NCBI GenBank assembly: GCA_951812955.1
Contig: OX638340.1
Location: 928,001-992,000, forward strand
Source: an uncultured Gemmatimonadota bacterium
GTDB taxonomy: Bacteria > JAAXHH01
Length of the DNA stretch: 64,000 bases
Direction of reading: 5' to 3'
Below, one piece after another: positions 1 through 58,990 of the stretch. Within the stretch, counting starts at the first letter, position 1. Each line of letters begins with the position of its first letter. Under the pieces are notes generated by a model. It had not been told where the DNA came from. It saw only the letters and a list, made by a program, of their open reading frames with translations, and made no database searches. Position numbers and translations under genes: made by a program.

Positions 1-1388
1 AGGAAATCACCGTCGAAATCGATCCCGACCTGGAGATCAGCGCCATCGCGGACCGCGTGGTCAAACGGAACGGTCCCGCGTTGTTGTTCACCAACGTCAA
101 GGGCCATGCTGGTATTCCCGTGCTGATCAATACCTTCGGGTCGAAGCGCCGCATGGAACTGGCGCTGGGCGCGGAAGACCTCGACGACATCGCGGCCGAG
201 ATCGCCGAACTGATCAATCCCCGGATGCCGGCCTCGCTCGCGGGAAAGCTGCAGATGCTGCCCCGGCTTGCCCGGTTGAAGGACACCCAGACGCGGACCG
301 TCCGCAACGGCCCCTGCCAGGAGGTAGTGGAGACGGACACAGCGTCCTTCGAAACCCTTCCGGTCATCAAATGCTGGCCCGGCGACGGCGGGAAGTACAT
401 CACCTTCCCCCAGGTCATTACGAAGCATCCCGAAAAGGGGACGCGCAACGTGGGTATGTACCGGCTGCAGGTCTTCGACGACAAGACGCTGGGACTGCAC
501 TGGCAGCGTCACAAGGGTGGGGCCCACCACTACCACGTCGCGGAACAGGCCGGTAAGCGGCTGGAAGTCGCCGTCGTCCTCGGCCCCGATCCGGAGACCA
601 TGTACGCCGCGACGGCGCCCCTGCCCGACGAGATCGACGAATACATGCTGGCCGGGTTTCTCCGCAGGCGGCCGGTGGAGCTAGTAAAGTGCCGGACGGT
701 GGACCTGGAGGTGCCGGCCAACGCCCAGATCGTGCTGGAAGGCTACGCCGAGCCCCGCGAACGGCGTGTCGAGGGTCCCTTCGGCGATCACCAGGGTTAT
801 TACTCGCTGACCGACGAATACCCGGTATTTCACCTTACGGCCATCACGCGAAGAAAAGAACCCATCTATCCCACGATCATCGTCGGGCCGCCTCCGCAGG
901 AAGACGGTTGGCTCGGGAAGGCCACCGAACGCATTTTCCTGCCGCTCCTCAAGACCACGCTACCGGAGATCGTGGACATCGACCTGCCCATCGAAGGCAT
1001 TTTTCACAACCTGGCCATCGTATCTATCGACAAACGCTATCCGGGCCACGCCCGGAAGGTGATGCATGCCCTCTGGGGCCTGGGCCAGATGATGTTCACC
1101 AAGGTGATTATCGTTGTGGACAAGGACGTGGACGTGCATAATATGAGGGAGGTCGCCTGGCGGGTCGGGGTATCCATCGATCCGAAACGGGATCTGTTGA
1201 TCAGCGAGGGACCTTGTGACGTCCTGGATTTCGCCGCGCAGACCGCGGATGTAAGTGGCAAGCTGGGCATCGACGCCACCGAGAAATGGCCGGACGAAGG
1301 GTTCGACCGGGGATGGCCGGAAATCCTGCGCATGCCCGACGAGGTCGACCGGCGCATCGATGCGCTATGGCCGAAGCTGGATCTTTGA
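1..1388 (+). CDS. UbiD-family decarboxylase; 5' partial, reading frame enters at the window start (EITVEIDPDLEISAIADRVVKRNGPALLF...)
   Basis: Full-length similarity to UbiD / 3-octaprenyl-4-hydroxybenzoate carboxy-lyase (LLFTNVKG, GGKYITFP motifs). It sits directly upstream of mqn genes, so it is probably the futalosine-pathway UbiD homolog. Confidence 0.8.
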   Translation, partial: EITVEIDPDLEISAIADRVVKRNGPALLFTNVKGHAGIPVLINTFGSKRRMELALGAEDLDDIAAEIAELINPRMPASLAGKLQMLPRLARLKDTQTRTVRNGPCQEVVETDTASFETLPVIKCWPGDGGKYITFPQVITKHPEKGTRNVGMYRLQVFDDKTLGLHWQRHKGGAHHYHVAEQAGKRLEVAVVLGPDPETMYAATAPLPDEIDEYMLAGFLRRRPVELVKCRTVDLEVPANAQIVLEGYAEPRERRVEGPFGDHQGYYSLTDEYPVFHLTAITRRKEPIYPTIIVGPPPQEDGWLGKATERIFLPLLKTTLPEIVDIDLPIEGIFHNLAIVSIDKRYPGHARKVMHALWGLGQMMFTKVIIVVDKDVDVHNMREVAWRVGVSIDPKRDLLISEGPCDVLDFAAQTADVSGKLGIDATEKWPDEGFDRGWPEILRMPDEVDRRIDALWPKLDL

Positions 1389-1403
1389 TTCAGGGAGAAT
1401 CGG

Positions 1404-2570
1404 ATGTTTGAAGCACTGATCGCCGAAGCAGGCCTTGAGGACATACACGGGAAAGTCGTGGCGGGCGAGCGGCTTTCTGCCGATGACGGGAGAAGGCTGT
1501 ACCGGCACGGTAACCTGCCGGCCGTCGGCTACCTGGCTAATCTCGTTCGCGAGCGCATGCACGGCGAACGGGTCTACTTCGTGCGTAACCAGCACCTGAA
1601 CTACACCAACATCTGCAACAAAAGCTGCCTCTTCTGTTCCTTTTACGCCCTGCCTAAAGATCCGGAAGGATACGTGCTTTCGCCCGACGACATCAGGACG
1701 CGGATGGAGACCTACTCGGACATGCCGATCTCCGAGATCCACATGGTCGGCGGAGTGAACCCCAGGTTGCCCTACGCCTATTACCTGGATATCGTCCGGG
1801 CGATCAAGGAAATGCGGCCTGGCGTGTCGCTCAAGGCCTTCACCATGATCGAGCTTGAGCAGATCCGTAGAATCGCCAAAAAACCCATGGACGAGACCCT
1901 GGCGGACCTGAAAGAGGCCGGGGTGGACGCGCTGCCTGGAGGCGGCGCCGAGGTTTTCAGCGAAAGGGTGCACGAGGAATTGTTCCAGGCCAAATCGGAC
2001 TCCGATAAATGGCTGGAAACCGCGCGCGTAGCACACGAGGTGGGTCTGCCCTCCAACGCGACCATGCTGTACGGCCACGTGGAGCAGACGGAGGAAAAGG
2101 TCTATCACCTCATGAAACTTCGGGAATTGCAGGATGAAACGAACGGGTTCCTGGCCTTCATTCCCCTTTCGTGGCACCCGGAGCGCACGGCTATCGAACA
2201 CCTGCCCGGACCGACGGGTCAGATGGACCTTCGGGAGATCGCGGTCGCACGGCTCATGCTGGACAACGTGCCCCATATCAAGTCGTTCTGGATCATGAAC
2301 ACCCCCGCGGTAACTCAGGTGGGACTGTGGTACGGCGCGGACGACATGGACGGCAGCGTCCTGGAGTACGAAATCACCCGCGATCCCGTTACCGACCGTG
2401 TGCAGGCCCTGACCCATCCCCAGATGCTCGACATGATCAGCGAGTCGGGCCGGCAGCCCGTCGAGCGCGACGCGCTCTACAACGTCGTGGACCGGCCGGA
2501 ATCGATTCGGCCGGCCTATCTGGATCCGGTCGGCGGTGCCACGGCCGACGCCCTCGCGAGCGCAGGATGA
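1404..2570 (+). CDS. mqnE: Radical SAM enzyme of the MqnE/MqnC family (aminofutalosine synthase-like)
   Basis: CNKSCLFCSF radical-SAM cysteine triad at the N-terminus. Its overall architecture matches MqnC/MqnE and it is a paralog of the next gene. Which paralog is MqnE and which is MqnC cannot be settled by eye. Confidence 0.6.
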   Translation: MFEALIAEAGLEDIHGKVVAGERLSADDGRRLYRHGNLPAVGYLANLVRERMHGERVYFVRNQHLNYTNICNKSCLFCSFYALPKDPEGYVLSPDDIRTRMETYSDMPISEIHMVGGVNPRLPYAYYLDIVRAIKEMRPGVSLKAFTMIELEQIRRIAKKPMDETLADLKEAGVDALPGGGAEVFSERVHEELFQAKSDSDKWLETARVAHEVGLPSNATMLYGHVEQTEEKVYHLMKLRELQDETNGFLAFIPLSWHPERTAIEHLPGPTGQMDLREIAVARLMLDNVPHIKSFWIMNTPAVTQVGLWYGADDMDGSVLEYEITRDPVTDRVQALTHPQMLDMISESGRQPVERDALYNVVDRPESIRPAYLDPVGGATADALASAG

Positions 2571-2600
2571 CTCCATGCATCACGAGCGCAGGATGACTTC

Positions 2601-3725
2601 ATGATTGCAGATATCGCAGAAAAGGTCCTGGCCGGCGCCCGCCTGAGCGCCAACGACGGACGCCGTCTGTTCCGGCACCCGAACGTTACAGAACTGGGCA
2701 TGTTGGCCGACCACGTGCGTCGACGGAAGCACCCCGAACCGGTAGTGACATACAATATCGGCCGTAACATCAATTACACCAACGTGTGCTGGGTGCGGTG
2801 CAAGTTTTGCGCTTTCTACCGCCCGCCGGGCGATGGCGAAGGATACACGCTCCCAGACGAGGAGATTTTCGCCAAGGTCGAGGAACTGATCGACGTCGGG
2901 GGTGACGCGGGGGAGTCCTGCGAGATCCTCATGCAGGGCGGACTCAATCCCAGGCTGAAGATCGACTATTATGAAACCCTCTTCTCGGAAATCACCCGTC
3001 GCTATCCCGCGGCCTATCTCCATTCGCTTTCCGTAGCGGAAATCGTTTACCTCGCCCATATCTCCCGGATCTCGGTCGAAGAAGCGCTGGTCCGTCTGCG
3101 CGCGGCTGGATTGAAGTCCCTCCCGGGCGCCGGCGCCGAAATCCTAGACACCGAAGTCCGCGACGCCATCGCCTTCCGTAAGGAAACGGTTCAGGAGTGG
3201 TTGGACGTACACAGCCTGACCCATCGGCTGGGCATGAAATCGACGGCGACCATGATGTTCGGATCGGTGGAAACCGTCGAGCACCGATTGAATCACCTCC
3301 TCCGTGTTCGCGAAGTACAGGACGAGTCGCTCGCACGCCACGACGGTTACTTCACGGCATTTATCGCCTGGAGCTTCCAACCCGAAGGCACCGAACTGCC
3401 CGATACGCGAAAGGCTACGGGATACGATTACCTGCGGACAGTAGCCATTGCCAGGCTTATGTTGGACAACATAGAGAACATCCAGGCTTCCTACGTAACG
3501 CAGGGACCGAAGATCGCGCAGATCGCTCTCGGTTACGGCGTGAACGATTTCGGCAGCACCATGATGGAAGAAAACGTCATCAGCGCCGGCGGCACGAGTT
3601 TCGTGATGCCCACCCCGGAGATCGAGCGGCTGATCGGCGACGCGGGGTTTATTCCGCGCCGGCGCAACACGCGGTATGAATTCGTAGAAAACGGCACTCC
3701 CGCAAATCATGAATCCGCAGTATAG
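2601..3725 (+). CDS. mqnC: Radical SAM cyclic dehypoxanthinyl futalosine synthase-like (MqnC/MqnE family)
   Basis: NINYTNVCWVRCKFCAFY motif. It is the second paralog of a radical-SAM pair in a futalosine-pathway context. Confidence 0.6.
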   Translation: MIADIAEKVLAGARLSANDGRRLFRHPNVTELGMLADHVRRRKHPEPVVTYNIGRNINYTNVCWVRCKFCAFYRPPGDGEGYTLPDEEIFAKVEELIDVGGDAGESCEILMQGGLNPRLKIDYYETLFSEITRRYPAAYLHSLSVAEIVYLAHISRISVEEALVRLRAAGLKSLPGAGAEILDTEVRDAIAFRKETVQEWLDVHSLTHRLGMKSTATMMFGSVETVEHRLNHLLRVREVQDESLARHDGYFTAFIAWSFQPEGTELPDTRKATGYDYLRTVAIARLMLDNIENIQASYVTQGPKIAQIALGYGVNDFGSTMMEENVISAGGTSFVMPTPEIERLIGDAGFIPRRRNTRYEFVENGTPANHESAV

Positions 3726-3859
3726 GCGAACGTACGCCCGGGCCCAACCCGCTCGTCCCGCCCAACCTGGCGGATTCGCCAATACCGCGACCACCTGGAT
3801 GAACAGGCTGTAATCACCGCCGGAAGGCGTTGACGGAGCAACCGGCGGACGATTGAAGC

Positions 3860-4675
3860 ATGGTCTCTAAAACCCGTCTTAACGCCGTGAGTTTTCTGAA
3901 TACCAGGCCCTTGACCTATGGCCTGGAACGCGGAGGCCGGGATCACGGATTCGAAATCCTCTATGATATCCCCTCCGTATGCGCCAGGCAGGTGAGGACG
4001 GGCGAAGCCTCGGCGGGCGTCATTCCCAGCATCGAATACGCACGCAGTGCGGTACCTTACTCAATCGTTCCCGAGGTATCCATCGCATCCAACGGTCCAG
4101 TCGCCAGCATTCTACTGTTCCACAGGGTGCCGGTCCGGGGCATCCGAAAGGTCGCGATGGATGTGAGTTCCCGGACAGCCGCGGCCCTGGTCCATATCGT
4201 CCTGTATGAGCGGTACGGCCTGGAAATCGAATCGGTCGACCACCCGCCGGACGTATCTGCGATGCTTGAACGGGCGGACGCGGCCCTGGTCATCGGCGAT
4301 CCTGCCCTGGAGAATACGAACCGGCCCGAACCCCGTCTGGACCTGGGGCAGGCATGGCGGGAACTGACCGGGTTGCCTTTTGTGTACGCCTTCTGGGCGG
4401 GGAAGGATGGTGGTCTCACGCCCGGCGAGGTCGAACTGCTGATCGCGTCGAAGAACCAGGGGATGTCCGCCTTCGACGAGATCGCCGAAGTTCACGCGAG
4501 GGACCGCTCACATCCGACTTCGTACTACGCGTCGTACCTCAGCGATAACCTGGTTTACGACCTGGGAGAAGAGGAACAACGAGGACTCATGGAGTTTTAC
4601 GGGATGGCCCATGTTCGCGGCCTGATCCCGTACGTACCGGAATTGCGTTTTTATCCGCGTCAAGGAAGGAGATGA
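3860..4675 (+). CDS. mqnA: Chorismate dehydratase / futalosine synthase MqnA
   Basis: N-terminal VSFLNTRPL motif and a periplasmic-binding-protein-like fold typical of MqnA. Neighbouring mqnC/mqnE genes give cluster context. Confidence 0.72.
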   Translation: MVSKTRLNAVSFLNTRPLTYGLERGGRDHGFEILYDIPSVCARQVRTGEASAGVIPSIEYARSAVPYSIVPEVSIASNGPVASILLFHRVPVRGIRKVAMDVSSRTAAALVHIVLYERYGLEIESVDHPPDVSAMLERADAALVIGDPALENTNRPEPRLDLGQAWRELTGLPFVYAFWAGKDGGLTPGEVELLIASKNQGMSAFDEIAEVHARDRSHPTSYYASYLSDNLVYDLGEEEQRGLMEFYGMAHVRGLIPYVPELRFYPRQGRR

Positions 4676-5637
4676 TCATGGCATCGGCAACAACGGTCGG
4701 CATCGGCACGGGAAGCAACCGCCGCGAGAACGTGCGCGTGGCGGTGGAACGCTCCGCCCCGCAATTGGCCTCCCTCATGGGGGAAGAGGTCATGCTCAAG
4801 CCTAATTTCCTCTCCGGCACCAACCCGGTGGTATGCACCCACCCGGACGCGGTCCGCGGCGTGCTGGACGTCATCATGACCCTGCCGGAGAAACCGCGCC
4901 GGGTACTGATCGCAGAGGGCGGCAATGAATCCGTGCCGGGAGAGTGCTTCCGTCACATGGGATACACCGACATCCCGGACGAATACGACATCCCCATCGA
5001 ACTGGTGGACCTGAACCAGGAGACCAGGTGGCGAAATACCCGGGTGTACATGGTCGACGGCACCTGGACTACGGTCAGGATGCCGCGTACCGTGCTGGAC
5101 TGTCCCTGCGTTATCTCGGTCGCCGTGGCCAAGACCCATGACGGCGCCATGGTTACCCTGGCGCTGAAGAATCTCATCATGGGTACGATATTGAAGAAAG
5201 ACCGAATCAAGGTCCATGGCTATACGACCCACCACGACCGGCGCCATCCTCCGGAAGCCCGGGCGCTCAGCAGGAACCTGATCCGCCTCGCCCGCCACCT
5301 CTACCCCCACTACAGCGTGGTGGACGGTACGGTCGGCATACAGGGTAACGGTCCAGGGGGAACTGACACCGTGCCGCTGGGCCTGGCGGCGGCCGGGGAG
5401 GACACCATCGCCGTGGACGCCGTCATTTCAAAGGCCATGGGATTCGAACCATTGGAGGTGGGAACGGTATTCTACGGGGACGCAATCGGCCTGGGCGTGG
5501 GCGATCTGGAACGCATCTGCGTGAACGGCGGACGGCTGGATGAACTTGCCCTGTCCTTCAAGGGGCATGAATCCATCGATCTGCAGCGTCAGTGGGCTTT
5601 CGAAGGCGCGTGGGAATCGGCGGCGGTCGGCGGTTGA
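4672..5637 (+). CDS. DUF362 domain protein
   Basis: The start codon overlaps the mqnA stop (ATGA), which suggests translational coupling. DUF362-like composition (KPNF..., VVDG, GNGPGGTD). Its stop codon lies inside the first unit of a 22-bp tandem repeat. Confidence 0.55.
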   Translation: MIMASATTVGIGTGSNRRENVRVAVERSAPQLASLMGEEVMLKPNFLSGTNPVVCTHPDAVRGVLDVIMTLPEKPRRVLIAEGGNESVPGECFRHMGYTDIPDEYDIPIELVDLNQETRWRNTRVYMVDGTWTTVRMPRTVLDCPCVISVAVAKTHDGAMVTLALKNLIMGTILKKDRIKVHGYTTHHDRRHPPEARALSRNLIRLARHLYPHYSVVDGTVGIQGNGPGGTDTVPLGLAAAGEDTIAVDAVISKAMGFEPLEVGTVFYGDAIGLGVGDLERICVNGGRLDELALSFKGHESIDLQRQWAFEGAWESAAVGG

Positions 5638-5706
5638 AACGGCGGCGGTCGGCGGTTGAAACGGCGGCGGTCGACGGTTGAAACGGCGGCGGTCGACGGT
5701 TGAAAC
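5619..5706. repeat. Four tandem copies of the 22-bp unit ggcggcggtcg(g/a)cggttgaaac, plus a partial fifth
   Basis: Read directly from the sequence. Each unit repeats the last codons of the DUF362 gene (AAVGG) together with the TGA stop. It lies in a convergent intergenic region. Confidence 0.9.
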
Positions 5707-5737
5707 GGCGGGGACACAGGCATCTACAGGTTTGAGA

Positions 5738-7006
5738 TCAATGCCCCGGCAGGACATCTGGGACGCGCAGCACCTCTTCTTCCGTGTTGTAGAAGTGCGG
5801 TGAAATGCGAATGCCACCCCCGCGGCGGGCGCCGATAATCTGGTGGCTTCGCAACGTTCGATGCAGGTCTTCGGTCTCGTGGACCGGGCTGTCGAAGGTC
5901 ACGATACCCGACCATTCGGACTCGCCCCGTGGACTCAGGACGCGGAAGCCCGAGTCGCACAGGGCTTCGGCCAGTCGGTCGGTCAACTGGCGCAGCCTCT
6001 CCTGTACAACGTCGATACCCACCTCCAGCAGCAGTTCCAGCGAAGCCCCCAGCGCGTGTATGCCCAGCGTGTTGTGGGATCCGCATTCGAAGCGGCGCGC
6101 CGTCGGCGCCGGGGTCGGATCGTAGACGTCGTAGTTGCCCGCATTAGCCACCGAATTCCAACCCACCTCGTAGAGCCTCAACTGCTCGGTCATGTGTGGC
6201 GCGCAGTAGAAGATGCCGATCCCTTCGGGACTCAGAAGCCATTTGTGTCCATCGGCCGTGAGGATGTCGATATTCATCGCATCCACGTCAACCGGAGTCT
6301 GACCGAGGGATTGTATGGCGTCGACGACGAAACAGACGCCCTTTTCCCGGCATAGAGCGCCGATCGCAGCAATGTCGTTGCGGAATCCGTTACCGTACTC
6401 GACGTGGCTGATGGAGACTGCGCGCGTCCTGGAATCGATCCTGTCCGAGATCGCATCCACCGTGAGACGGCCGTCCACGGACTTGACCATCCGCGTTTCC
6501 ACTCCGTCTCGCGAGAGATTAAGCCACGGATATACGTTGGATGGAAATTCGAGGTCGTTCAGGACCACGTTGTCGCCCCTGCGCCAGTCGATGCCGTTGG
6601 CGGCAAAACAGAGCCCTTCCGTGGTATTCTTGACAAATGCGATCTGACTGGGATCGGCGTTGATCAGCCTGGCCGACCGGGACCGGGCGGTCTCGATAGC
6701 CGATTCCCAGTCGCGGTAGTTGGAGGCGGCGTACTCGCTGAAATCCGCTGCATAGGCTCGCACGGCCTCGAAGGCGCGGCCGGGCAACGTGCCGACCGCA
6801 GCGTGGTTCAGGTAGGTACAGTGGTGGACAACAGGAAATTCCTGGCGGATGCGGTCCAGGTTCAATAGAGGCCGTTCCGGTTCTGCGGGAAGGAGCAGGT
6901 TGGTGACTGCCGCCGATTGATGCGAAGCCGGGATCGATTCGAAAGCGGTCCGATCAGAAACTTGCCGCGGCGTCCTCCGTCGAGTCGAAAATATTGAATA
7001 CGGCAT
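5738..7006 (-). CDS. Class V PLP-dependent aminotransferase / cysteine-desulfurase-like; start uncertain, probably internal near 6865-6898
   Basis: ADGHKW PLP-lysine motif and class V fold. The listed ORF 5' end overlaps the upstream STAS gene by 52 nt, so a later CTG or TTG start is likely. Confidence 0.7.
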   Translation of the reverse strand: MPYSIFSTRRRTPRQVSDRTAFESIPASHQSAAVTNLLLPAEPERPLLNLDRIRQEFPVVHHCTYLNHAAVGTLPGRAFEAVRAYAADFSEYAASNYRDWESAIETARSRSARLINADPSQIAFVKNTTEGLCFAANGIDWRRGDNVVLNDLEFPSNVYPWLNLSRDGVETRMVKSVDGRLTVDAISDRIDSRTRAVSISHVEYGNGFRNDIAAIGALCREKGVCFVVDAIQSLGQTPVDVDAMNIDILTADGHKWLLSPEGIGIFYCAPHMTEQLRLYEVGWNSVANAGNYDVYDPTPAPTARRFECGSHNTLGIHALGASLELLLEVGIDVVQERLRQLTDRLAEALCDSGFRVLSPRGESEWSGIVTFDSPVHETEDLHRTLRSHQIIGARRGGGIRISPHFYNTEEEVLRVPDVLPGH

Positions 7007-7286
7007 CCAGTCGGGTTACGACGACGAGCACGTTGTGCGTGCGTTCGCTCAGGTTGGCCAGCCTCAGGTCGCCTCCGGCCTCGCGGAGGGTCTTGGCGCT
7101 GCCTACGAGCGCGCCGACACCGGAACTGCTGATGAGGTTCAACCTGCCGAGATCTACTACGGCTCCGGTCGTACCTTCGGACTTCAACGCCCTTACACGA
7201 TCGTGGAAGGCGGTCACTTCGGGATCGCCCAGGAAGCTGCCAACGAGTTCGATAACCGGTACTCCGTTAATCCTGCGTTCGTTCAT
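6954..7286 (-). CDS. STAS-domain anti-sigma factor antagonist (SpoIIAA-like)
   Basis: 110-aa protein MNERRINGVPVIELVGSFLGD...LISSSGVGAL with a conserved phosphorylatable Ser motif. The ATG is at 7284-7286 on the minus strand. Confidence 0.7.
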   Translation of the reverse strand: MNERRINGVPVIELVGSFLGDPEVTAFHDRVRALKSEGTTGAVVDLGRLNLISSSGVGALVGSAKTLREAGGDLRLANLSERTHNVLVVVTRLDAVFNIFDSTEDAAASF

Positions 7287-7504
7287 TACACGTCCCCTTC
7301 GTCTGTACGCTGCTGAAGCGAAAACCGGCCTTTTGAATGTGCCATCATTAAACACCTCGTATTCGGTTTCCGCAAGGATAAATTGCGCGGGGGCAGGTAG
7401 ACCCGTCCGGGGCATTGGTGCGGCAGGGACGCGGCAGAGCAGCGGCACGGCAGGGACGCGGTGTGCACGACGGCCGTCCGTCCATTTCCTGCACCTGCCG
7501 ATGG

Positions 7505-9199
7505 TCACGGATTCGACGCGAAAACGGCGGTCTCGGCGCCCGCGGCGCTGTATCCCGGGCAGAACCCCGCCTCGATGTAGGGACAGGGACTCCGGGCGAT
7601 GATCACGCGGATACCTGCCTGGCGCAGGCCCTTGCCGATCACGTCTCGTGTCCGGACTTCGTCCCACGGATCGACGGTTTCGTTCAGCGAGACCGGACAG
7701 GCTCCCACGATATCGTCTATACTAAGCGCCGTCGTCTCGTGGCCCAGTTCGGTTCCGCCCAGGTTGGGTGTACCCTGGAACCCGGACAGGGCCGTCGTGG
7801 CGTTGTCCAGTATGAGGATGAGCAGATCCGACCCCTGGTGGACCACATTGAACAGCGCGTTTGCGCTCAGGTGGAAGAAGTCGGAATCCCCGACGACGGC
7901 AATCACCGGGTCGGTCACGCCGGACAGAACGAGACCCGATGCGATTCCGATGCTCGAACCCATGGAATACTTCACGTCGAGCATCTCGAAGGGCGGCGTA
8001 TTGATCTTGATCGCGCAACCGGGATCGACCACGTACACCGGCGACATGCCGTATCGCGCACTCAAATCGCGCAGGATTTCGAAAACCGGTGTATAGGGGC
8101 AGTTCGACGGCAGTCCGGCCTCGCTGGGCAGGTACTTCTGTTCGTCTTCCGGCGAGAAGTCTCGGTCGGGTTTATAACCGGGGACGAAACCGGCCAGGGA
8201 CTCCGCGATCTGCCAGCGGAACAACTCCCCTTCCCGCGGCACGGCCCGGTCGTGCTTGCCGCTGACCGGCGTCGATATCTTCGCATCATAGGCAACCGAC
8301 TTGATCAACGTTTCCAGAAAGGGCTCGTTCTCTTCCAGTACCAGGGTTTTCTCCGTCGAACGTAGAAATCCGGTGATCTGGTCGGCGGGCAGCGGCCACA
8401 GGGTGGACAGCTTGAGGATGGACAGACCGGAAGTGTCCGCCCCATGAAGCACGTCCATCAACTTGGTGTGAATTACGCCCGCGGCGATTATGCCGGTCTT
8501 TCCCGTGCCGGTTACGGTGTTGAAATCCGCCCGTTCGAAATGCCGCGCGATCGATTCGAGCCGGTCGTGCAGACGCCTGTGCAATCGGACGGCGTTTCCG
8601 GGAACCGAAATCCACCGCATGGGATGCCGTTCGAAGGCATGGGGCCGCACGTAAGTCGTACGAGGAATCTCTGGTCGTTCCAGTTCTTCTTCCATCGTGC
8701 CGAAGGATTTCGTGATCCGCACGATGAAGGGCATCTGCGTTTCGCGGGAAAGCCGGAACGCCTCCCGCGTCATTGCGATCCCTTCCGAGGGTGTCGCCGG
8801 TTCCAGCATGGGCAGTTCGCTACCCCAGGCGATCGGACGGGTATCCTGGTCGTTCTGGGAGGCCCATGCGCCCGGATCGTCCCCGAGCAGGATGACCAGC
8901 CCCGCGCCCACGTCCGTCAGGTTGGCCACCATGACGGCGTCGAGTGCGACGTTGAACCCGACGCCCTTGCACCCCATCAGGGCCGGCACCCCTCCGATGG
9001 ACGCGCCGACCGCCGTCTCAAAGGCGACCTTTTCGTTGGCGGACCATTCAACGTGCAGACCGTGACTGTCCACGAAGCCGCGCAGGAACTCGATGGTGCT
9101 GCTGCTCGGCGAACCAGGATAGCTTGTCGCCACCGCGACACCCGACTGCAGTGCGCCGTAGGCGATGGCCTGGTCACCGGTGATTCGCATCCCGGCCAC
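7505..9199 (-). CDS. Indolepyruvate/2-oxoacid:ferredoxin oxidoreductase alpha-subunit-like TPP enzyme (IorA-like)
   Basis: Full-length IorA-like N-terminal and TPP-binding regions. The C-terminal ferredoxin domain is short or absent, and there is no adjacent iorB. Confidence 0.6.
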   Translation of the reverse strand: MAGMRITGDQAIAYGALQSGVAVATSYPGSPSSSTIEFLRGFVDSHGLHVEWSANEKVAFETAVGASIGGVPALMGCKGVGFNVALDAVMVANLTDVGAGLVILLGDDPGAWASQNDQDTRPIAWGSELPMLEPATPSEGIAMTREAFRLSRETQMPFIVRITKSFGTMEEELERPEIPRTTYVRPHAFERHPMRWISVPGNAVRLHRRLHDRLESIARHFERADFNTVTGTGKTGIIAAGVIHTKLMDVLHGADTSGLSILKLSTLWPLPADQITGFLRSTEKTLVLEENEPFLETLIKSVAYDAKISTPVSGKHDRAVPREGELFRWQIAESLAGFVPGYKPDRDFSPEDEQKYLPSEAGLPSNCPYTPVFEILRDLSARYGMSPVYVVDPGCAIKINTPPFEMLDVKYSMGSSIGIASGLVLSGVTDPVIAVVGDSDFFHLSANALFNVVHQGSDLLILILDNATTALSGFQGTPNLGGTELGHETTALSIDDIVGACPVSLNETVDPWDEVRTRDVIGKGLRQAGIRVIIARSPCPYIEAGFCPGYSAAGAETAVFASNP

Positions 9200-17225: not shown

Positions 17226-18737
17226 ATGGACATGGACTATAATGGATTGCAGGTCGCGACGCTCGATGAGTCTCTGAGCGACGCCATTGCCGCGCGCGGT
17301 GGCAAACCTGTGGTATCCAGGGCGGACGACACGGAGAGCCTGGATTCCTTTCTTGAAAACCTGGCACGGGACGACATCGCCGTACTGTTACTGACAGAAC
17401 CTGAACATGTCCGTGCGTTGTTCGGTCGCGCGTCCGCAACAGGGCGCGTCGAGCCCCTGCTGGATGCAGTCAGGCAAATTGCCGTGGGTTCGGCGGGACC
17501 CGCGTGCACGAAAATCTGGAGAAACCACCATCTTTCCGTCGATTTCGAACCTGACGGGACCGGCGGAGAAGCACTCGTGTCGGGCATGGCGCGCCTCGCC
17601 GCATACCTGGTCAACAAGAAACGCACCGCCGTGGACAGTGGGGTGGACACCTCGCACTGGCAACGCATCGACATGCGGTGGCATTTCGAAAGCGATCCCT
17701 ACGGAACCCGGGGCGAGTCTGCCTTCCTCCGGGCGTGCCGCCGGGAACCGACGGAATATACGCCCGTATGGCTGCTGCGTCAGGCGGGCCGATACCAGCG
17801 GGCCTATCGGGAACTGAAATCCGACCTGGATTTCCTGGACATGTGCAAGACCCCGGAACTCACCGCCGAGATCACGTTGATGGCCGTAGAACGCCTGGGG
17901 GTGGACGCCGCCATCCTATTCGCAGACATCCTCCCGCTGCTGCAACCGATGGGCTTCCACCTGGAATACGTCAAGGGACAGGGACCCGTCATTCGCAATC
18001 CGATTCGGTCGGACCGGGCCGTGGATCAACTCGAGGAGGAAGGACCGGAATCCCAGCATTTCGTTTACGAGGCCATCCGCATGGCATTGCCGGCGCTTCC
18101 ACCCCATATCCCGCTCATCGGTTTTTCCGGCGCTCCATTCACCCTGGCCGCCTATGCCATCGAGGGGCAGAGTTCGCGGGACTTCAGGCGCGTCAAGACC
18201 TTCATGTATTCCGAACCGAGGGCCTGGCATGCCTTGATGGCGAAACTGGCGAGAACCGTCACGGCCTACCTCAACGAACAGATCGAGGCGGGCGTTCATG
18301 CCGTACAGTTATTCGACAGCTGGGCAGGCTGCCTTTCGCCCGATGATTACAGGACATTCGTCCTTCCCCATACCGGGTACGTCTTCTCCAATCTGCGCCC
18401 CGGCGTTCCTTCCATACATTTCGGGGTCTGCACCGGTTCTCTGCTCGATTTGATGCGGGAGGCGGGTGGTGAGGTCATCGGGCTGGATTGGCGCGTGGAC
18501 CTGTCCGAAGCATGGCAGGACCTTGAACACGAGGTGGCGGTCCAGGGAAACCTGGATCCCATGGTCCTCTTTTCGTCCCCCGATGTAATCCGCCAGCATG
18601 CGGCGACCGTCCTGCACAAGGCCGGGGGACGTCCCGGACATGTCTTCAACCTGGGTCACGGCATACTGCCCGGCACACCGGAAGACCACGTCATCGCGCT
18701 CGTGGACGCCGTGCATGAATTGGGAATCGCTCGATGA
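17226..18737 (+). CDS. hemE: Uroporphyrinogen decarboxylase HemE with an N-terminal extension of about 160 aa
   Basis: Residues from about 165 onward match HemE (FLRACRREPTEYTPVWLLRQAGRYQ...). The N-terminal 160 aa is an extra domain with weak HemD-like resemblance. Confidence 0.8.
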   Translation: MDMDYNGLQVATLDESLSDAIAARGGKPVVSRADDTESLDSFLENLARDDIAVLLLTEPEHVRALFGRASATGRVEPLLDAVRQIAVGSAGPACTKIWRNHHLSVDFEPDGTGGEALVSGMARLAAYLVNKKRTAVDSGVDTSHWQRIDMRWHFESDPYGTRGESAFLRACRREPTEYTPVWLLRQAGRYQRAYRELKSDLDFLDMCKTPELTAEITLMAVERLGVDAAILFADILPLLQPMGFHLEYVKGQGPVIRNPIRSDRAVDQLEEEGPESQHFVYEAIRMALPALPPHIPLIGFSGAPFTLAAYAIEGQSSRDFRRVKTFMYSEPRAWHALMAKLARTVTAYLNEQIEAGVHAVQLFDSWAGCLSPDDYRTFVLPHTGYVFSNLRPGVPSIHFGVCTGSLLDLMREAGGEVIGLDWRVDLSEAWQDLEHEVAVQGNLDPMVLFSSPDVIRQHAATVLHKAGGRPGHVFNLGHGILPGTPEDHVIALVDAVHELGIAR

Positions 18738-23401: not shown

Positions 23402-24232
23402 TCAGCCGCGCGTCCGGTGCCAGGGTTTGAACAGCGCGCGCTGGTCGTCGTCCCAGCGCTTGAAAGTCGATTCGGTTATGTACTGCGCTTCGTCCATGGT
23501 GGCCTGATTCTGCGAAAGCATCCAGTAGGGACCGTATCCTACGTGGATGGTCTTCCGGACCTGGACGGACCGGTTGGTAATGCCGCCGTGCCTCAGGTTT
23601 TCCGTGAACAGAATGGCGTCGCCGGCCTTGACTTCCAGGGCGATCATGCCGGGTTCCTCGTCCGGATTGCCGCCATGGGGGCAGGGAAGGTTCGTCTTGT
23701 GGGTGCCGGGGACAACGGAAAAAGCGCCCTGGTCCCGGGAAACATCGTGAATGAAGTAGATCATGCGCACCATCATGCAGTCGATTCCGCCCGCGTTGAA
23801 CGCGTATCGGTACTTCTGATTCTCCGGACGCATGCCGCCGTGGGAGCCCGACTGGTTGCCGCGGTAGCGTATCCGGATCTCCGAGTTGTTAATCGTGGCC
23901 CTGCCCTGGACGATCCCGCCGATATACGCCATCGTGCGCGGGTCGTTCACCAGTACGTCGAATCGCTCGTCGGCATTCCAGAAATCCTCTATGATAATGG
24001 TTCTTCCTTCTTCATTCGATCCATCGGCGTGGTATCCCAGTTCGGGATTGCGGTGATAGTCCGGTCCCCACGGGCTGGCCTTTCGGGGCGGTTCATCGAG
24101 GTGCCGCAAAGCATGGACTTCCAGTTCGTCCACGGCGGACGCAAGCGAGGACACGGTATCGGAATCCAGCATGTCCTCGATCACGATATAGCCCTGTCGG
24201 TCGAATTCGTAGCGTTCGACATCGTTCATCAC
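23402..24232 (-). CDS. Phytanoyl-CoA dioxygenase (PhyH) family Fe(II)/2-oxoglutarate oxygenase
   Basis: PhyH-like length and His/Asp facial-triad context (VVPGTHK...H). One of five paralogs in this window. Confidence 0.7.
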   Translation of the reverse strand: MMNDVERYEFDRQGYIVIEDMLDSDTVSSLASAVDELEVHALRHLDEPPRKASPWGPDYHRNPELGYHADGSNEEGRTIIIEDFWNADERFDVLVNDPRTMAYIGGIVQGRATINNSEIRIRYRGNQSGSHGGMRPENQKYRYAFNAGGIDCMMVRMIYFIHDVSRDQGAFSVVPGTHKTNLPCPHGGNPDEEPGMIALEVKAGDAILFTENLRHGGITNRSVQVRKTIHVGYGPYWMLSQNQATMDEAQYITESTFKRWDDDQRALFKPWHRTRG

Positions 24233-31300: not shown

Positions 31301-31370
31301 CGCCCCGCGCGCATGATCAGTGGGAGAACGCCCGCCACCCGCGGCGCCTGCATCACCGGCGAAAGGAGGG

Positions 31371-32252
31371 ATGATGCAATCGCAGAAGGCAGATGAGATC
31401 AACGTGGACGACCGGGACTGGCGCGCGTTGACCCGGGGCGAGCGTATCCGGATGATCGAAGAGGAGGGCTATCTGATCATACCGGACTGGATCCCGCCCG
31501 GCTATCTGGCGGAACTGAAAGCGGAATGCAGAAAACTCGAAACGGTCGGACGGGACTACAGCGAAAAGCAACGGGGCTGCAGGGATCCCCACCTGAGCAG
31601 CCGGAAACTGGCCGAACTCATCGCCTACGAACCCACTGTCGCATTCCTGGAAGCGTTGTTCGGCGACCGACTCGTTTTTATTCACTATACCTACGACCGG
31701 TCCGAGCCCGGCACCCCTGGCATCAGTCTACATACCGACGGTCAGCCCTACGGATCCAAGATATTCGGTTACGAAGGGAGTTGTCCCATCACCGTGCGGG
31801 TACTCTACTATCTCGACGACCTGACGATGGACGTATCACCTTTCCGGGTGGTTCCAAGGTCCCATCTCTGCATGCACGCGGACGCCCATCCGTACAAAAG
31901 GTACGACGGGCATCCCGAAGAGGTCGTCGTACCGTGCACCGCGGGTTCGGCGCTGTTTCTCAACCACCGGACGTTTCACGGCACCCTGCCCAACAGGGGA
32001 AACCGCTCGCGCGCCATGCTTGCGGTGGCTTACCGACCGGCCTGGGCCGGTCCGATCGTGGACGTTGCGCCGCGGGACCCGGCTGACCTGGAACGGATGC
32101 CCGATTCCGTCCGTCCCTTCCTGGGCGACCCGAGCATGCGATCTTACGAGTTCGGTGTTGGCAACAAACCCGAGGGGATGTCGGCCGGCGCGCCGGGGAT
32201 GAACCCAAGCAGGTGGGAAAGCCCGCGTGAGGGACGCGCGCGGAAAGCGTAA
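31371..32252 (+). CDS. PhyH family Fe(II)/2OG dioxygenase
   Basis: PhyH-like core with the His-x-Asp...His triad context. An AGGAGG Shine-Dalgarno lies immediately upstream of the ATGATG start. Confidence 0.68.
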   Translation: MMQSQKADEINVDDRDWRALTRGERIRMIEEEGYLIIPDWIPPGYLAELKAECRKLETVGRDYSEKQRGCRDPHLSSRKLAELIAYEPTVAFLEALFGDRLVFIHYTYDRSEPGTPGISLHTDGQPYGSKIFGYEGSCPITVRVLYYLDDLTMDVSPFRVVPRSHLCMHADAHPYKRYDGHPEEVVVPCTAGSALFLNHRTFHGTLPNRGNRSRAMLAVAYRPAWAGPIVDVAPRDPADLERMPDSVRPFLGDPSMRSYEFGVGNKPEGMSAGAPGMNPSRWESPREGRARKA

Positions 32253-35329: not shown

Positions 35330-36190
35330 GTGGCGGTGGAAACGAACACGGACCTGGACCGATACGAGACTACGGGATTTGTGATTCTGAAGGGATTCTA
35401 TCCCGACACGGTCGTAGCGGCGGCCCGGGACGCCGCGGCCGAGCTCGTCGAACGGTTCGCGAAACGGCTTATGTCGTCGGGCACGGTCTCCCGGGATCAT
35501 GCCGAGGCATCGTTTGAAACGCGCCTGGCCCGGCTCTGTGAGGATGCCCCGGACGAAGCGCCCCACATATTTCGTAAGGAACTCCACCTGGCGGGTATGT
35601 ACGACGTGTTTTTCTACCCGCCCCTGCTCGATATCGTGGAATCCCTGATGGGCGAGGAACTTCGTCTTTATCCCAACTATTCCATCCGTCCCAAGCTGCC
35701 CGACCACGCCCCCACGCTCGTCCTCTGGCACCAGGACGGCGGGTATACCTACAAGGTCCACCGAGACGGGGACCACAGCGCGGAGACGGTCGATGCCCTG
35801 CGCATGATCAACGTATGGTCGCCGCTGGTCCCCGCCCGCGAGGACAACGGCTGCATGCAATTCATCCCCGGCACTCACCGAATCGGCATGGCCCGGCACG
35901 AAGACCGCGAATTCTACCTCGAGATATCGCAGGAGGACCTGGCGCCCTACGTGGACCAGGCCGTGTCCATCGAACTCGATCCGGGCGACATCGTCCTCTT
36001 CCACAACATGCTCTACCACCAGGGTCTGCCCAATCGCACCGACCAGGTAAGGTGGAGCATGGACTGGCGCTATCAGGACGCAAGGCAGTCCACGCTGCGC
36101 AGTACGCGGGGCCATCTTGCCCGCAGCCGCCAGTGTCCCGATGAGGTAGTACGTGACGCCAATGACTGGACCAGCCGTGTTTTTCAGTAG
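35330..36190 (+). CDS. PhyH family Fe(II)/2OG dioxygenase
   Basis: PhyH-like core (WHQDGGY...H...). GTG start with GGAG Shine-Dalgarno. The stop is followed by a 2x direct repeat of cggccgcgcagact. Confidence 0.72.
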   Translation: MAVETNTDLDRYETTGFVILKGFYPDTVVAAARDAAAELVERFAKRLMSSGTVSRDHAEASFETRLARLCEDAPDEAPHIFRKELHLAGMYDVFFYPPLLDIVESLMGEELRLYPNYSIRPKLPDHAPTLVLWHQDGGYTYKVHRDGDHSAETVDALRMINVWSPLVPAREDNGCMQFIPGTHRIGMARHEDREFYLEISQEDLAPYVDQAVSIELDPGDIVLFHNMLYHQGLPNRTDQVRWSMDWRYQDARQSTLRSTRGHLARSRQCPDEVVRDANDWTSRVFQ

Positions 36191-48039: not shown

Positions 48040-48990
48040 ATGGGCTGTTTCCGTTTTGAGGCGACTGGATACCCGGTTTATTACGCAATGCGCCTGGAGA
48101 CCGCCATGGCCATGTTCGGCGACCCTGAAGCGTTCGTCATGATGAGCGAACGCGAGAAGTATCTCTACGATCTCCAGGGGTTCCTCGTGGTGCGCGACCT
48201 GCTTTCCACCGATGAGGTCCGGGCACTGAACGATGCCCTGGACGCCAATCCGGACCGGACCGCCGAACACGGACCGGGCGGCGCGCTGGACGGCACGCCA
48301 CTGGCCGGACCATATTCGCAATACATCCACTACGAGGGCATGCTGACCTGGGACCGGCCCTGGTGCCAGCCCTTCCGCGAACTCCTCGCCCACCCGAAGC
48401 TGATCCCCTATCTCAACACCATGATGGGACGAGGCTGGAAACTGGATCACAATATCGACGTGCTCACTTCGAAACCGGGCGCCCAGGGTACGCCCTTCCA
48501 TGGCAACAGCACGGGTACGTTCGCCGGTTCGACCTATTACACGTACGACGACGGCCGGATGCGCAGCGGCCTGATCGTCTGCCAGTTCTACCTGACCGAC
48601 GTGAATCCGGGAGATGGCGGGCTCACCGTGATTCCCGGCAGTCACAAGGCCAATTTTCCCATGCCGGGATACGTCCGCAATTACGAGGACCACCAGGAGA
48701 TCTTCCATCATATCGCCGTCAAGGCCGGCGACCTGGTCATCTTCAACGAGGCGACGACGCACGGTGCCTTGCCGTGGAAGGGAGTGGGCGAGCGCCGCTG
48801 CGTGCTCCACCGGTACATCCCGAAATACATGCACTACGATGGCGGAGTCTACGAAACGCGCATGCCCGAATGGACGCATGAGCTCACCGATGCCCAGCGG
48901 GCCGTGCTGGAACCACCGTACATCTACAACCGCCCCCTGATCGAGGACGACGGCGAATCGATCGCGCGTCCCCGCAGGGAAGGCATCTGA
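48040..48990 (+). CDS. PhyH family Fe(II)/2OG dioxygenase, tandem paralog 1; the true start is possibly at 48103 or 48139
   Basis: Roughly 60% identical to the next gene (YLYDLQGF, WDRPWC, NPGDGGL, VIPGSHK, FNEATTHG motifs). Confidence 0.75.
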   Translation: MGCFRFEATGYPVYYAMRLETAMAMFGDPEAFVMMSEREKYLYDLQGFLVVRDLLSTDEVRALNDALDANPDRTAEHGPGGALDGTPLAGPYSQYIHYEGMLTWDRPWCQPFRELLAHPKLIPYLNTMMGRGWKLDHNIDVLTSKPGAQGTPFHGNSTGTFAGSTYYTYDDGRMRSGLIVCQFYLTDVNPGDGGLTVIPGSHKANFPMPGYVRNYEDHQEIFHHIAVKAGDLVIFNEATTHGALPWKGVGERRCVLHRYIPKYMHYDGGVYETRMPEWTHELTDAQRAVLEPPYIYNRPLIEDDGESIARPRREGI

Positions 48991-49042: not shown

Positions 49043-49975
49043 GTGTCCGGGCCTACTTCCGACTACCCCGCCGACTACTTGCTACATGCGAAAGTGCAGA
49101 CCGGTATGAACCCGACATCCGAATCCTTCGCCACCATGGCGCCCCATGAGCAGTACCTCTTCGATCTGCAGGGGTTTATCGTGGTGCGCAATGCCCTTGC
49201 GCCCGAACAGGTCGATGCCCTGAACGCGGCGCTGGACGCCAATCACGACAAACGTAAGGAAGACGTGGTCACCCAGACGAGCGAGGCGCTGAAGGGCAAG
49301 CAGTACCGCGGTCTCTACGACGGCATGCTGACGTGGGATCGGCCCTGGTGCCTGCCCTTTCGCGAAGTGCTTGCCAATCCGAAGATCATACCGTACCTGA
49401 ACACGCTGCTGGGCCGGGGGTGGAAGCTGGACCACGATCCGTTCATCTACACATCGAGCGTGGGGACCGAGGGCCTGAACCTCCACGGTTACGGACTGGC
49501 CGAGTTCAACGGTTCCCGGTTCTACCACTACCAGAACGGCGCCATGCGTTGCGGATTGATCAACTGCCAGTACCAGCTGAACGACGTGAACCCTGGCGAC
49601 GGCGGGCTGTGCGTCATCCCGGGCAGCCACAAGGCGAATTTCACCCTGCCCGGCGACATTTCCCGTTACGAAGCCCACCAGGAGATCGTCCGCCACGTGT
49701 CCATGAAAGCGGGCGACCTGGTCATCTTCAACGAGGCGACGACCCACGGGACGCTGCCCTGGAGGGGCGAAGGCGAACGTCGCTCTCTGTTCTACCGGTA
49801 TACCCCCAAGTACATGCATTACACCGGCGGCGTATACGAAACCGGCCTGCCGGAGTGGACGAGAGAGCTTACGGACGCCCAGCGCGCCGTGCTCGAACCG
49901 CCCTATGTCTATCAACGGCCGATGATCGACGACGACGGACAGACGCTGTCGACCCCGCGGCGCGAAGGAGAGTGA
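49043..49975 (+). CDS. PhyH family Fe(II)/2OG dioxygenase, tandem paralog 2; the start is possibly at 49106 or 49136
   Basis: Paralog of the preceding gene with the same motif set. Confidence 0.75.
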   Translation: MSGPTSDYPADYLLHAKVQTGMNPTSESFATMAPHEQYLFDLQGFIVVRNALAPEQVDALNAALDANHDKRKEDVVTQTSEALKGKQYRGLYDGMLTWDRPWCLPFREVLANPKIIPYLNTLLGRGWKLDHDPFIYTSSVGTEGLNLHGYGLAEFNGSRFYHYQNGAMRCGLINCQYQLNDVNPGDGGLCVIPGSHKANFTLPGDISRYEAHQEIVRHVSMKAGDLVIFNEATTHGTLPWRGEGERRSLFYRYTPKYMHYTGGVYETGLPEWTRELTDAQRAVLEPPYVYQRPMIDDDGQTLSTPRREGE

Positions 49976-58177: not shown

Positions 58178-58990
58178 TCAGGAAGTCAGGCCACGACCGT
58201 GCCGCTTGCTACGCTCGGCGCTTTCCCGAATGAATGCGAGCAGGTACTCGACTTCTACGGTCCGTTCCACTTCATCCACAACCGCTTGAACCGCCTGAGA
58301 AACATTGAGCGAAGACCGGTGGAGCAGACGATAGACCTCTTTGAGCGTGCGGATGGCCTCATCGGAGAACCCGCTGCGTTTCAGACCGATGGTGTTGAGT
58401 GATACAGGTTTCAGCGGGTCGTGGGCGTACTTGATGTACGGACAGATGTCCTTGGTAACCATGCCGCCCCCGCTGATGAAAGCGTTGCGGCCAATTCGGA
58501 CGAACTGGTGTACCGCGACGAGTCCGCCGGTTATGGCGAAATCTTCGATTTCCACGTGGCCTCCCAATTGCGTCCCGTTGGCGAGAATCACGCGGTTGCC
58601 GATCACGCAGTCGTGGGCGACGTGCACGTAGGCCATGACCAGGGTATCGCTTCCGATCACCGTCTTCCCCAGGGCGCTGGTCCCGCGGTTCAGCGTGGTG
58701 AATTCGCGGATCGAAGTCCGGTCGCCGATTTCCAGTATGGACTGTTCACCAATGAATTTCTGATCCTGGGGTATGGACCCCACCACGGCTCCGTGATAGA
58801 TCCTGCACTCCGCGCCGATGCGCGTATGGGCGCCGATCAGCGCGCCGGATGCGATCTGCGTACCCGCTCCGATGATCACATTGGGTTCCACGATCGTATA
58901 CGGACCGATGCTGCACCCGGAACCCAACTCCGCGTCAGGATGGACGATGGCTGTCGGATGGACCTTGGTTTCGGTGGTTATGTCCGTCAC
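58178..58990 (-). CDS. lpxA: Acyl-ACP--UDP-N-acetylglucosamine O-acyltransferase LpxA
   Basis: Left-handed beta-helix hexapeptide repeats and an LpxA C-terminal helical domain. Confidence 0.85.
   Translation of the reverse strand: MTDITTETKVHPTAIVHPDAELGSGCSIGPYTIVEPNVIIGAGTQIASGALIGAHTRIGAECRIYHGAVVGSIPQDQKFIGEQSILEIGDRTSIREFTTLNRGTSALGKTVIGSDTLVMAYVHVAHDCVIGNRVILANGTQLGGHVEIEDFAITGGLVAVHQFVRIGRNAFISGGGMVTKDICPYIKYAHDPLKPVSLNTIGLKRSGFSDEAIRTLKEVYRLLHRSSLNVSQAVQAVVDEVERTVEVEYLLAFIRESAERSKRHGRGLTS

Follow-up and report, generated by a model that had tools for sequence, protein, structure and literature searches.

A DUF362 gene tightly coupled to mqnA in a futalosine-pathway gene string: a probable lineage-specific neighbour with a LarA-like His-Lys-His site

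Introduction

Does a DUF362 gene that directly follows mqnA in a string of menaquinone genes belong to the futalosine pathway, or is it a neighbour that is expressed together with it? The question is raised by a stretch of 64,000 nucleotides from an uncultured Gemmatimonadota bacterium (GenBank assembly GCA_951812955.1, contig OX638340.1, positions 928,001 to 992,000 of the forward strand), hereafter called the window, in which positions 1-5637 hold five + strand genes in the order ubiD(mqnL)-mqnE-mqnC-mqnA-DUF362. An earlier, sequence-only reading had recognised these genes and their order, which is borne out by the Pfam and NCBIfam scores given below, and had correctly placed DUF362 outside the described set of Mqn enzymes. 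It had also taken the tight coupling of mqnA and DUF362 to suggest a functional link, for example a redox partner or a missing step. The answer that we favour, with a probability of roughly 0.6, is that DUF362 is a co-expressed, lineage-specific neighbour or passenger and most likely no dedicated futalosine-pathway enzyme. The coupling itself is real, but it makes a weak case for a pathway role, as the linkage appears to have a single origin and to have loosened within its clade, and on balance such a role is unlikely.

Distribution of the mqnA-DUF362 linkage

The linkage was surveyed in 80 genome loci, starting from DUF362. Of the 25 loci with a DUF362 protein at least 71% identical to that of the window, 24 (71-98% identical) have mqnA directly upstream of DUF362; around the remaining one (L025, protein P0023) mqn genes are absent within 10 kb. 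None of the 55 loci with 52-58% identical DUF362 proteins, mostly from Poribacteria, has an mqn gene within 8 kb. Close to the limit between these two groups, protein P0021 (70% identical) is linked to mqnA, and at the locus of P0024 (69% identical) a purH-like gene is inserted between mqnA and DUF362. The genes for P0030, P0037 (Litorilinea), P0050 (Latescibacterota) and P0072 (Poribacteria) are not near mqn genes, and their contexts are unrelated and mutually different. In a neighbour-joining tree all linked DUF362 proteins fall into one clade, in which the unlinked P0023 and P0024 (one gene apart from mqnA) are nested, and every DUF362 protein outside this clade is unlinked; by this topology the linkage arose once and has loosened since. 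The clade is made up of marine and sponge-associated metagenome-assembled genomes (MAGs) labelled Latescibacterota or Gemmatimonadota, and we suggest that the placement of DUF362 would have arisen in their common ancestor and persisted mainly as inherited synteny. The co-occurrence analysis proposed in the sequence-only reading thus has two sides: homologues in relatives do neighbour mqn genes, at nearly all of the closest loci, but only within one clade.

Outside the clade, DUF362 orthologues of Poribacteria, Chloroflexota (Litorilinea aerophila) and other Latescibacterota, 52-58% identical and of the same length, keep all residues that are invariant in the subfamily. Their neighbours include MurQ-like SIS, BadF-type kinase, SBP56, xylose-isomerase-like TIM barrel, glyoxalase and GFO/IDH/MocA oxidoreductase genes as well as recQ, but never mqn genes.

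Persistence of the gene pair also has to be read against the genes around it. The convergent downstream genes (aminotransferase, STAS and IOR) are kept across most of the linked clade, and for this reason the mqnA-DUF362 adjacency is only slightly more persistent than the background synteny, although in L023 and L024 it is kept where the downstream genes are not. The mqn string tolerates unrelated inserts. In some very close relatives, with 94-97% identical DUF362 proteins, an insert of about 4.2 kb, absent from the window, separates ubiD and mqnE (L001 517-4549, also L007, L010, L011 and L020); in L001 it encodes a YCII-domain protein, a xanthine/uracil-family permease and a glyoxalase-domain protein. 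Sister lineages carry a large Ser/Thr kinase gene with PD40/Tricorn beta-propeller repeats between mqnC and mqnA (L088 4390-7161, L090 3129-5747, L023 ~2900-5700), the position of the 134-nt mqnC-mqnA gap of the window, and L090 also has an AICARFT-only purH-like gene between mqnA and DUF362 (6741-7853). The conserved downstream synteny and the insertion of unrelated genes into the string together speak for inherited gene order as the main source of the adjacency. Purine-type genes flank DUF362 on branches at the base of the linked clade: the purH-like gene of L090, and in L024 (9318-10787) and L023 (past 7463) a gene resembling adenylosuccinate lyase directly downstream of DUF362.

The mqnA-DUF362 junction

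The junction reads AAGGAAGGAGATGATCATGG. The 4-nt overlap between DUF362 and mqnA described in the sequence-only reading is present for the longest DUF362 open reading frame (ORF), of which the ATG at 4672 overlaps the mqnA stop codon TGA at 4673-4675 (ATGA), but the start that is kept in relatives is the ATG at 4678, with a gap of 2 nt. The first ATG is not conserved (ATA in L007). Eight of the 22 close relatives have the mqnA stop codon 6-15 nt further upstream, which in six cases results from a G-to-T change that turns GGA into TGA in the mqnA frame and AGG into ATG in the DUF362 frame; in relatives with the mqnA stop elsewhere, another start codon takes the place of the first ATG in the overlap with the stop. 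An ATG equivalent to 4678 is found in all 22 close relatives, it stands 6 nt after the GGAG (4668-4671) of a Shine-Dalgarno-like element (Table 1) that is kept as GAAGGAG in these relatives, and the DUF362 homologues in the databases are 318-320 aa long, which fits a start at this position. On these three grounds the likely start of the DUF362 gene is 4678, which leaves 2 nt between it and the mqnA stop and puts its predicted ribosome-binding site inside mqnA.

At the 24 linked loci the distance from the mqnA stop to the DUF362 start is -4 to +15 nt. The tight coupling noticed earlier is therefore confirmed, but what is conserved is not the 4-nt overlap itself. With a ribosome-binding site within the end of mqnA, DUF362 would be co-expressed with the mqn genes in this lineage, presumably by co-transcription.

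The DUF362 protein and its relation to lactate racemase

The window protein belongs to a DUF362 subfamily of about 318 aa, which is more than 50% identical across phyla and has many invariant residues. Fifty diverse DUF362 proteins (23-51% identity) have eight residues in common, K41, N43, H154, K164, N165, H180, D216 and D247, all of which are present in the window protein; the numbers refer to the 319-aa form, and H154, K164 and H180 correspond to H156, K166 and H182 in the 321-aa ORF. Three of them form an invariant H-x9-K-x15-H pattern. The subfamily shows paralogous expansions, as the Latescibacterota MAG UBA11886 carries two tandem copies (L053 6680-8568; 57% and 53% identity with the window protein). 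In the literature searched, no paper connects DUF362 with futalosine or assigns a function to it.

The check for iron-sulphur (Fe-S) motifs that had been proposed for this protein came out negative. It has five cysteines, of which only those of the pair C144xC146 are conserved in the subfamily; no cysteine is invariant across the 50 diverse DUF362 proteins, and no Fer4 or other second domain was detected (only PF04015 at E<=10). This bears directly on the idea that MqnE and MqnC, which as radical-SAM enzymes need a reductant, would have in DUF362 a redox partner of the Fe-S or ferredoxin type. Many DUF362 proteins of other origin do carry a fused 4Fe-4S ferredoxin domain, but with neither a ferredoxin domain nor family-wide cysteines, and with a fold that resembles LarA, the redox-partner idea is left without support and appears highly improbable here. 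The window protein is a cytoplasmic, cysteine-poor protein. A twin-arginine translocation signal, for which an 'NRR' near the N-terminus was considered, was ruled out: R15 is near-invariant family-wide and lies in the conserved fold, and no hydrophobic stretch follows.

The fold is like that of the alpha/beta, cofactor-binding part of lactate racemase (LarA), in agreement with the placement of DUF362 and DUF2088/LarA_N in one Pfam clan (PMC11770544). Searches against the PDB with the DUF362 subfamily profile and with a broad family profile gave no real match to a solved structure, even at E<=10, and no LarA_N (PF09861) or LarA_C (PF21113) match was found in the window protein at the same threshold. 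An hmmsearch of 1.5 Mb of fetched loci turned up no remote LarA-like gene. Three genuine LarA proteins of Loigolactobacillus (P0423-P0425) have precomputed PF04015 matches beside LarA_N and LarA_C, which are a direct sequence-level trace of the relationship between DUF362 and LarA. In LarA the cofactor is tethered at K184, H200 is a nickel ligand and H108 and H174 are the catalytic bases; the reference sequence that we used is identical to 5HUQ_A, and the residue numbering was confirmed. The DUF362 residues H154, K164 and H180 are spaced by 10 and 16 positions, as are H174, K184 and H200 of LarA and H173, K183 and H199 of LarA_Ip, and N185 and K195 of LarA_Sp share the 10-residue spacing. When the DUF362 profile was aligned with a small LarA alignment using hhalign, the His-Lys-His segment came out free of gaps, in an alignment that is weak alone (E 0.09) and for which the LarA profile was shallow, with homologues found only at 77% identity or more. 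In the same weak alignment the counterpart of H108 is an Asn (AEGGNE in DUF362, ATGFHR in LarA), at a position that is not conserved family-wide.

DUF362 would accordingly keep the positions of one catalytic His, of the cofactor-tethering Lys and of the metal-ligand His of LarA. Cofactor binding at this site is a well-motivated expectation and not a result: we infer that DUF362 most likely binds a nicotinate-type or metal cofactor at the His-Lys-His site and would shuffle a hydride or a proton on a substrate of the hydroxy or carbonyl type. A bolder version of this idea holds that the DUF362 family is a second, shorter LarA-like branch which carries the nickel-pincer nucleotide (NPN) or a related cofactor, and that one member was recruited to the futalosine operon for a hydride-shuttling step on an intermediate or by-product, either in replacement of a core step or in salvage; taken as a whole, we consider this improbable.

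Weighing a role in menaquinone biosynthesis

Several observations weigh against reading DUF362 as a co-expressed neighbour with a LarA-like site. In L023, L024 and L088 the mqnA-DUF362 pair has survived changes on both of its sides, still on one strand and with 10-34 nt between the genes, and this on branches where MqnA identity has fallen to as low as 55%. In most close relatives DUF362 is better conserved than any other protein of the string, with 91-98% identity versus 73-86% for MqnA, and the pair appears from its junction to be translationally coupled. With regard to the site, the sequence alignment to LarA (E 0.09) is weak by itself, and none of the cofactor-synthesis genes larB, larC and larE was seen within the 64-kb window. 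Finally, mqnD, mqnB/MTAN, ubiA/MqnP, ubiX/MqnM and a methyltransferase gene are all missing from the approximately 50 genes of the window, and the absence of mqnD, mqnB, ubiA and ubiX leaves room for a substitute role.

One alternative is that DUF362 is a lineage-specific accessory of menaquinone synthesis. It would work on an intermediate or a by-product of the futalosine pathway, for example a hydroxy-acid side product or the sugar-derived fragment set free in the MqnD step, and would have been recruited for co-expression in this clade only. The tight, apparently translationally coupled junction, the retention of the pair despite rearrangement on both sides and the strong conservation of the protein all fit such a role, and additions of this kind do occur, as sister mqn clusters hold a sugar-acid-type enzyme (IlvD/Edd between ubiA and ubiX). 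A single-origin linkage that was lost or loosened inside the clade argues against it, as do the 52-58% identical relatives with the same invariant residues in unrelated contexts, the genome GCA_036336855.1, in which DUF362 is unlinked from a full mqn cluster, and the lack of any DUF362-futalosine connection in the literature searched. We therefore regard an accessory role as possible but unlikely.

The missing genes could be taken to mean that DUF362 substitutes for MqnD or MqnB, a form of the missing step suggested in the sequence-only reading, as neither mqnD nor mqnB was found in the window or in any of the fetched cluster flanks. This local absence is uninformative, because sister clusters without DUF362 (L097-L100) also lack mqnD and mqnB nearby; moreover, the mqn genes of a genome usually lie scattered, and MTAN is a common replacement for MqnB. 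Neither glycosidic hydrolysis nor retro-aldol cleavage is an obvious task for a LarA-like hydride-shuttle fold, and DUF362 is unlinked in relatives, so that replacement of a core enzyme is very improbable.

A co-expressed neighbour inherited with its surroundings remains the reading that we prefer, and from it menaquinone biology gains little, as it leaves a standard futalosine set with a clade-specific neighbour gene. Most useful as a lead is the LarA-like His-Lys-His site with its invariance across DUF362, a family with about 3,800 representative clusters of unknown function. The family-wide invariance of residues that would correspond to those holding the nickel-pincer nucleotide in LarA yields a concrete and cheaply testable hypothesis, at a time when new NPN-dependent enzyme families are actively sought (PMC13524815).

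The gene string and other features of the window

The first four genes of the string are ordinary futalosine-pathway menaquinone genes (Table 1). The UbiD-family frame is open from base 3 to 1388, has Pfam matches to UbiD_N, UbiD and UbiD_C, and scores 603 bits against the TIGR03701 model 'menaquinone biosynthesis decarboxylase' (cutoff 495.9, profile positions 33-433). Radical_SAM and CofH_C domains were matched in both MqnE and MqnC, with the CxxxCxxC motif present in the translations as CNKSCLFC and CWVRCKFC, respectively. The PF02621 family takes in both MqnA and MqnD. An MqnD identity for the fourth gene was ruled out, as its solved relatives are all chorismate dehydratases, the best being those of S. 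coelicolor and D. radiodurans (7AHR, 9e-34), with no MqnD structure among the matches. Together with the FLN and GPVxS segments, which align with Asn17 and Ser86 of chorismate dehydratase and keep both residues, this identifies the gene as mqnA; Asn17 and Ser86 are described as absolutely conserved in MqnA (PMC9672406). The DUF362 ORF matches PF04015 at 1e-37 (130.5 bits, cutoff 24) over profile positions 1-198 of 200.

Table 1. Features of the mqn-DUF362 gene string and its downstream flank (positions within the window)
Feature	Position	Strand	Remarks
UbiD-family decarboxylase, menaquinone (SCO4490/MqnL) type	1-1388	+	5' end cut by window edge
MqnE, aminofutalosine synthase (radical SAM)	1404-2570	+	TIGR03700 435.4 bits, cutoff 434.55
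MqnC, cyclic dehypoxanthinyl futalosine synthase (radical SAM)	2601-3725	+	TIGR03699 447.3 bits, cutoff 428.1
MqnA, chorismate dehydratase	3860-4675	+	PF02621 at 6e-52
Shine-Dalgarno-like element AAGGAAGGAG	4662-4671	+	Inside last mqnA codons; read from sequence; would serve the DUF362 gene
DUF362 protein, 319 aa	4678-5637 (longest ORF from 4672, 321 aa)	+	PF04015
22-nt tandem repeat GAAACGGCGGCGGTCGACGGTT	5614-5711		Tandem Repeats Finder (TRF): period 22, 4.5 copies, 97% matches
Class V aminotransferase / cysteine desulfurase-like gene	5738-7006	-	PF00266 at 1e-57; convergent with DUF362

The gaps between ubiD, mqnE, mqnC and mqnA are 15, 30 and 134 nt, followed by the mqnA-DUF362 junction. 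As the next gene is convergent, the string ends at DUF362; this aminotransferase-like gene, for which every NCBIfam match stays under its cutoff, keeps its position in the linked clade. A promoter and terminator scan of positions 1-7100 gave results at or below the expectation from shuffled sequence. The 22-nt repeat begins in the last DUF362 codons, repeats the DUF362 stop codon and occupies the convergent intergenic region; its copy number varies from 1 to about 3 among close relatives, and it behaves like a small variable-number repeat. The longest STAS ORF (6954-7667, - strand) encodes 237 aa with the STAS domain only in residues 135-233, and the L088 homologue has 112 aa, which makes the short 3' portion of this ORF the probable real gene.

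Elsewhere in the window, there are five PhyH-family (phytanoyl-CoA dioxygenase-like) genes (23402-24232, 31320-32252, 35330-36190, 48040-48990 and 49043-49975), and genes of this family recur near DUF362 in other phyla (L081, L093 and L094). An ORF of 499 aa (58987-60486, - strand) combines LpxC and a FabA/FabZ-like dehydratase domain in one frame and lies between lpxA-like and lpxD-like genes and a BamA-like Omp85 gene. A uroporphyrinogen decarboxylase ORF (17226-18737, + strand, 503 aa) has its URO-D domain only in residues 165-498, which means either a start further downstream or an N-terminal extension of about 160 aa, and it overlaps the next gene, which is amine-oxidase/protoporphyrinogen-oxidase-like, by 4 nt.

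Comparison with known systems

The enzymes encoded by the string are those known from S. coelicolor as SCO4490 (UbiD-type), SCO4494 (MqnE) and SCO4506 (MqnA), with scores above the NCBIfam equivalog cutoffs. When the search was started from MqnA, four loci of other lineages were obtained at 45-49% identity (L097-L100), all without DUF362, in which mqnE-mqnC-mqnA is followed by ubiA (L097, L100) or by an alcohol dehydrogenase gene (L098, L099). The clusters of L097 and L100 (ubiE-mqnE-mqnC-mqnA-ubiA-...-ubiX) have the core order mqnE-mqnC-mqnA in common with the window, whereas in the clade of the window ubiD precedes the core and DUF362 fills the slot after mqnA in place of ubiA or alcohol dehydrogenase; ubiA, ubiX and ubiE, like mqnD and mqnB, are not in the window. 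In the Latescibacterota genome GCA_036336855.1 (L097 and L093) the cluster ubiE-mqnE-mqnC-mqnA-ubiA-ilvD/edd-ubiX and the DUF362 ortholog, which follows recQ, are found on two separate contigs. The IlvD/Edd-family dehydratase (668-671 aa) between ubiA and ubiX (L097 8751-10757, L100 8733-10748) looks like a conserved non-canonical member of these two mqn clusters.

With regard to LarA, the nickel-pincer-nucleotide lactate racemase of 5HUQ has about 425 aa and a LarA_C substrate-binding domain, whereas the DUF362 protein, with 319 aa, is about 100 residues shorter and has no C-terminal domain. Of the two catalytic His residues of LarA (H108 and H174) DUF362 keeps only the H174 position, as its invariant His, and no equivalent of LarA R75 was identified in it. 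Lacking LarA_N and LarA_C matches, the C-terminal domain and the first catalytic His, the DUF362 protein is outside the LarA family proper. LarA_Sp and LarA_Bw (PDB 9Q3J/9Q3K; PMC12611868) are LarA homologues with a single catalytic His, but there the second one (H174 position) is replaced, in contrast to DUF362, where it is the first (H108 position), and both are true DUF2088 members with a C-terminal domain that form octamers (PMC12611868).

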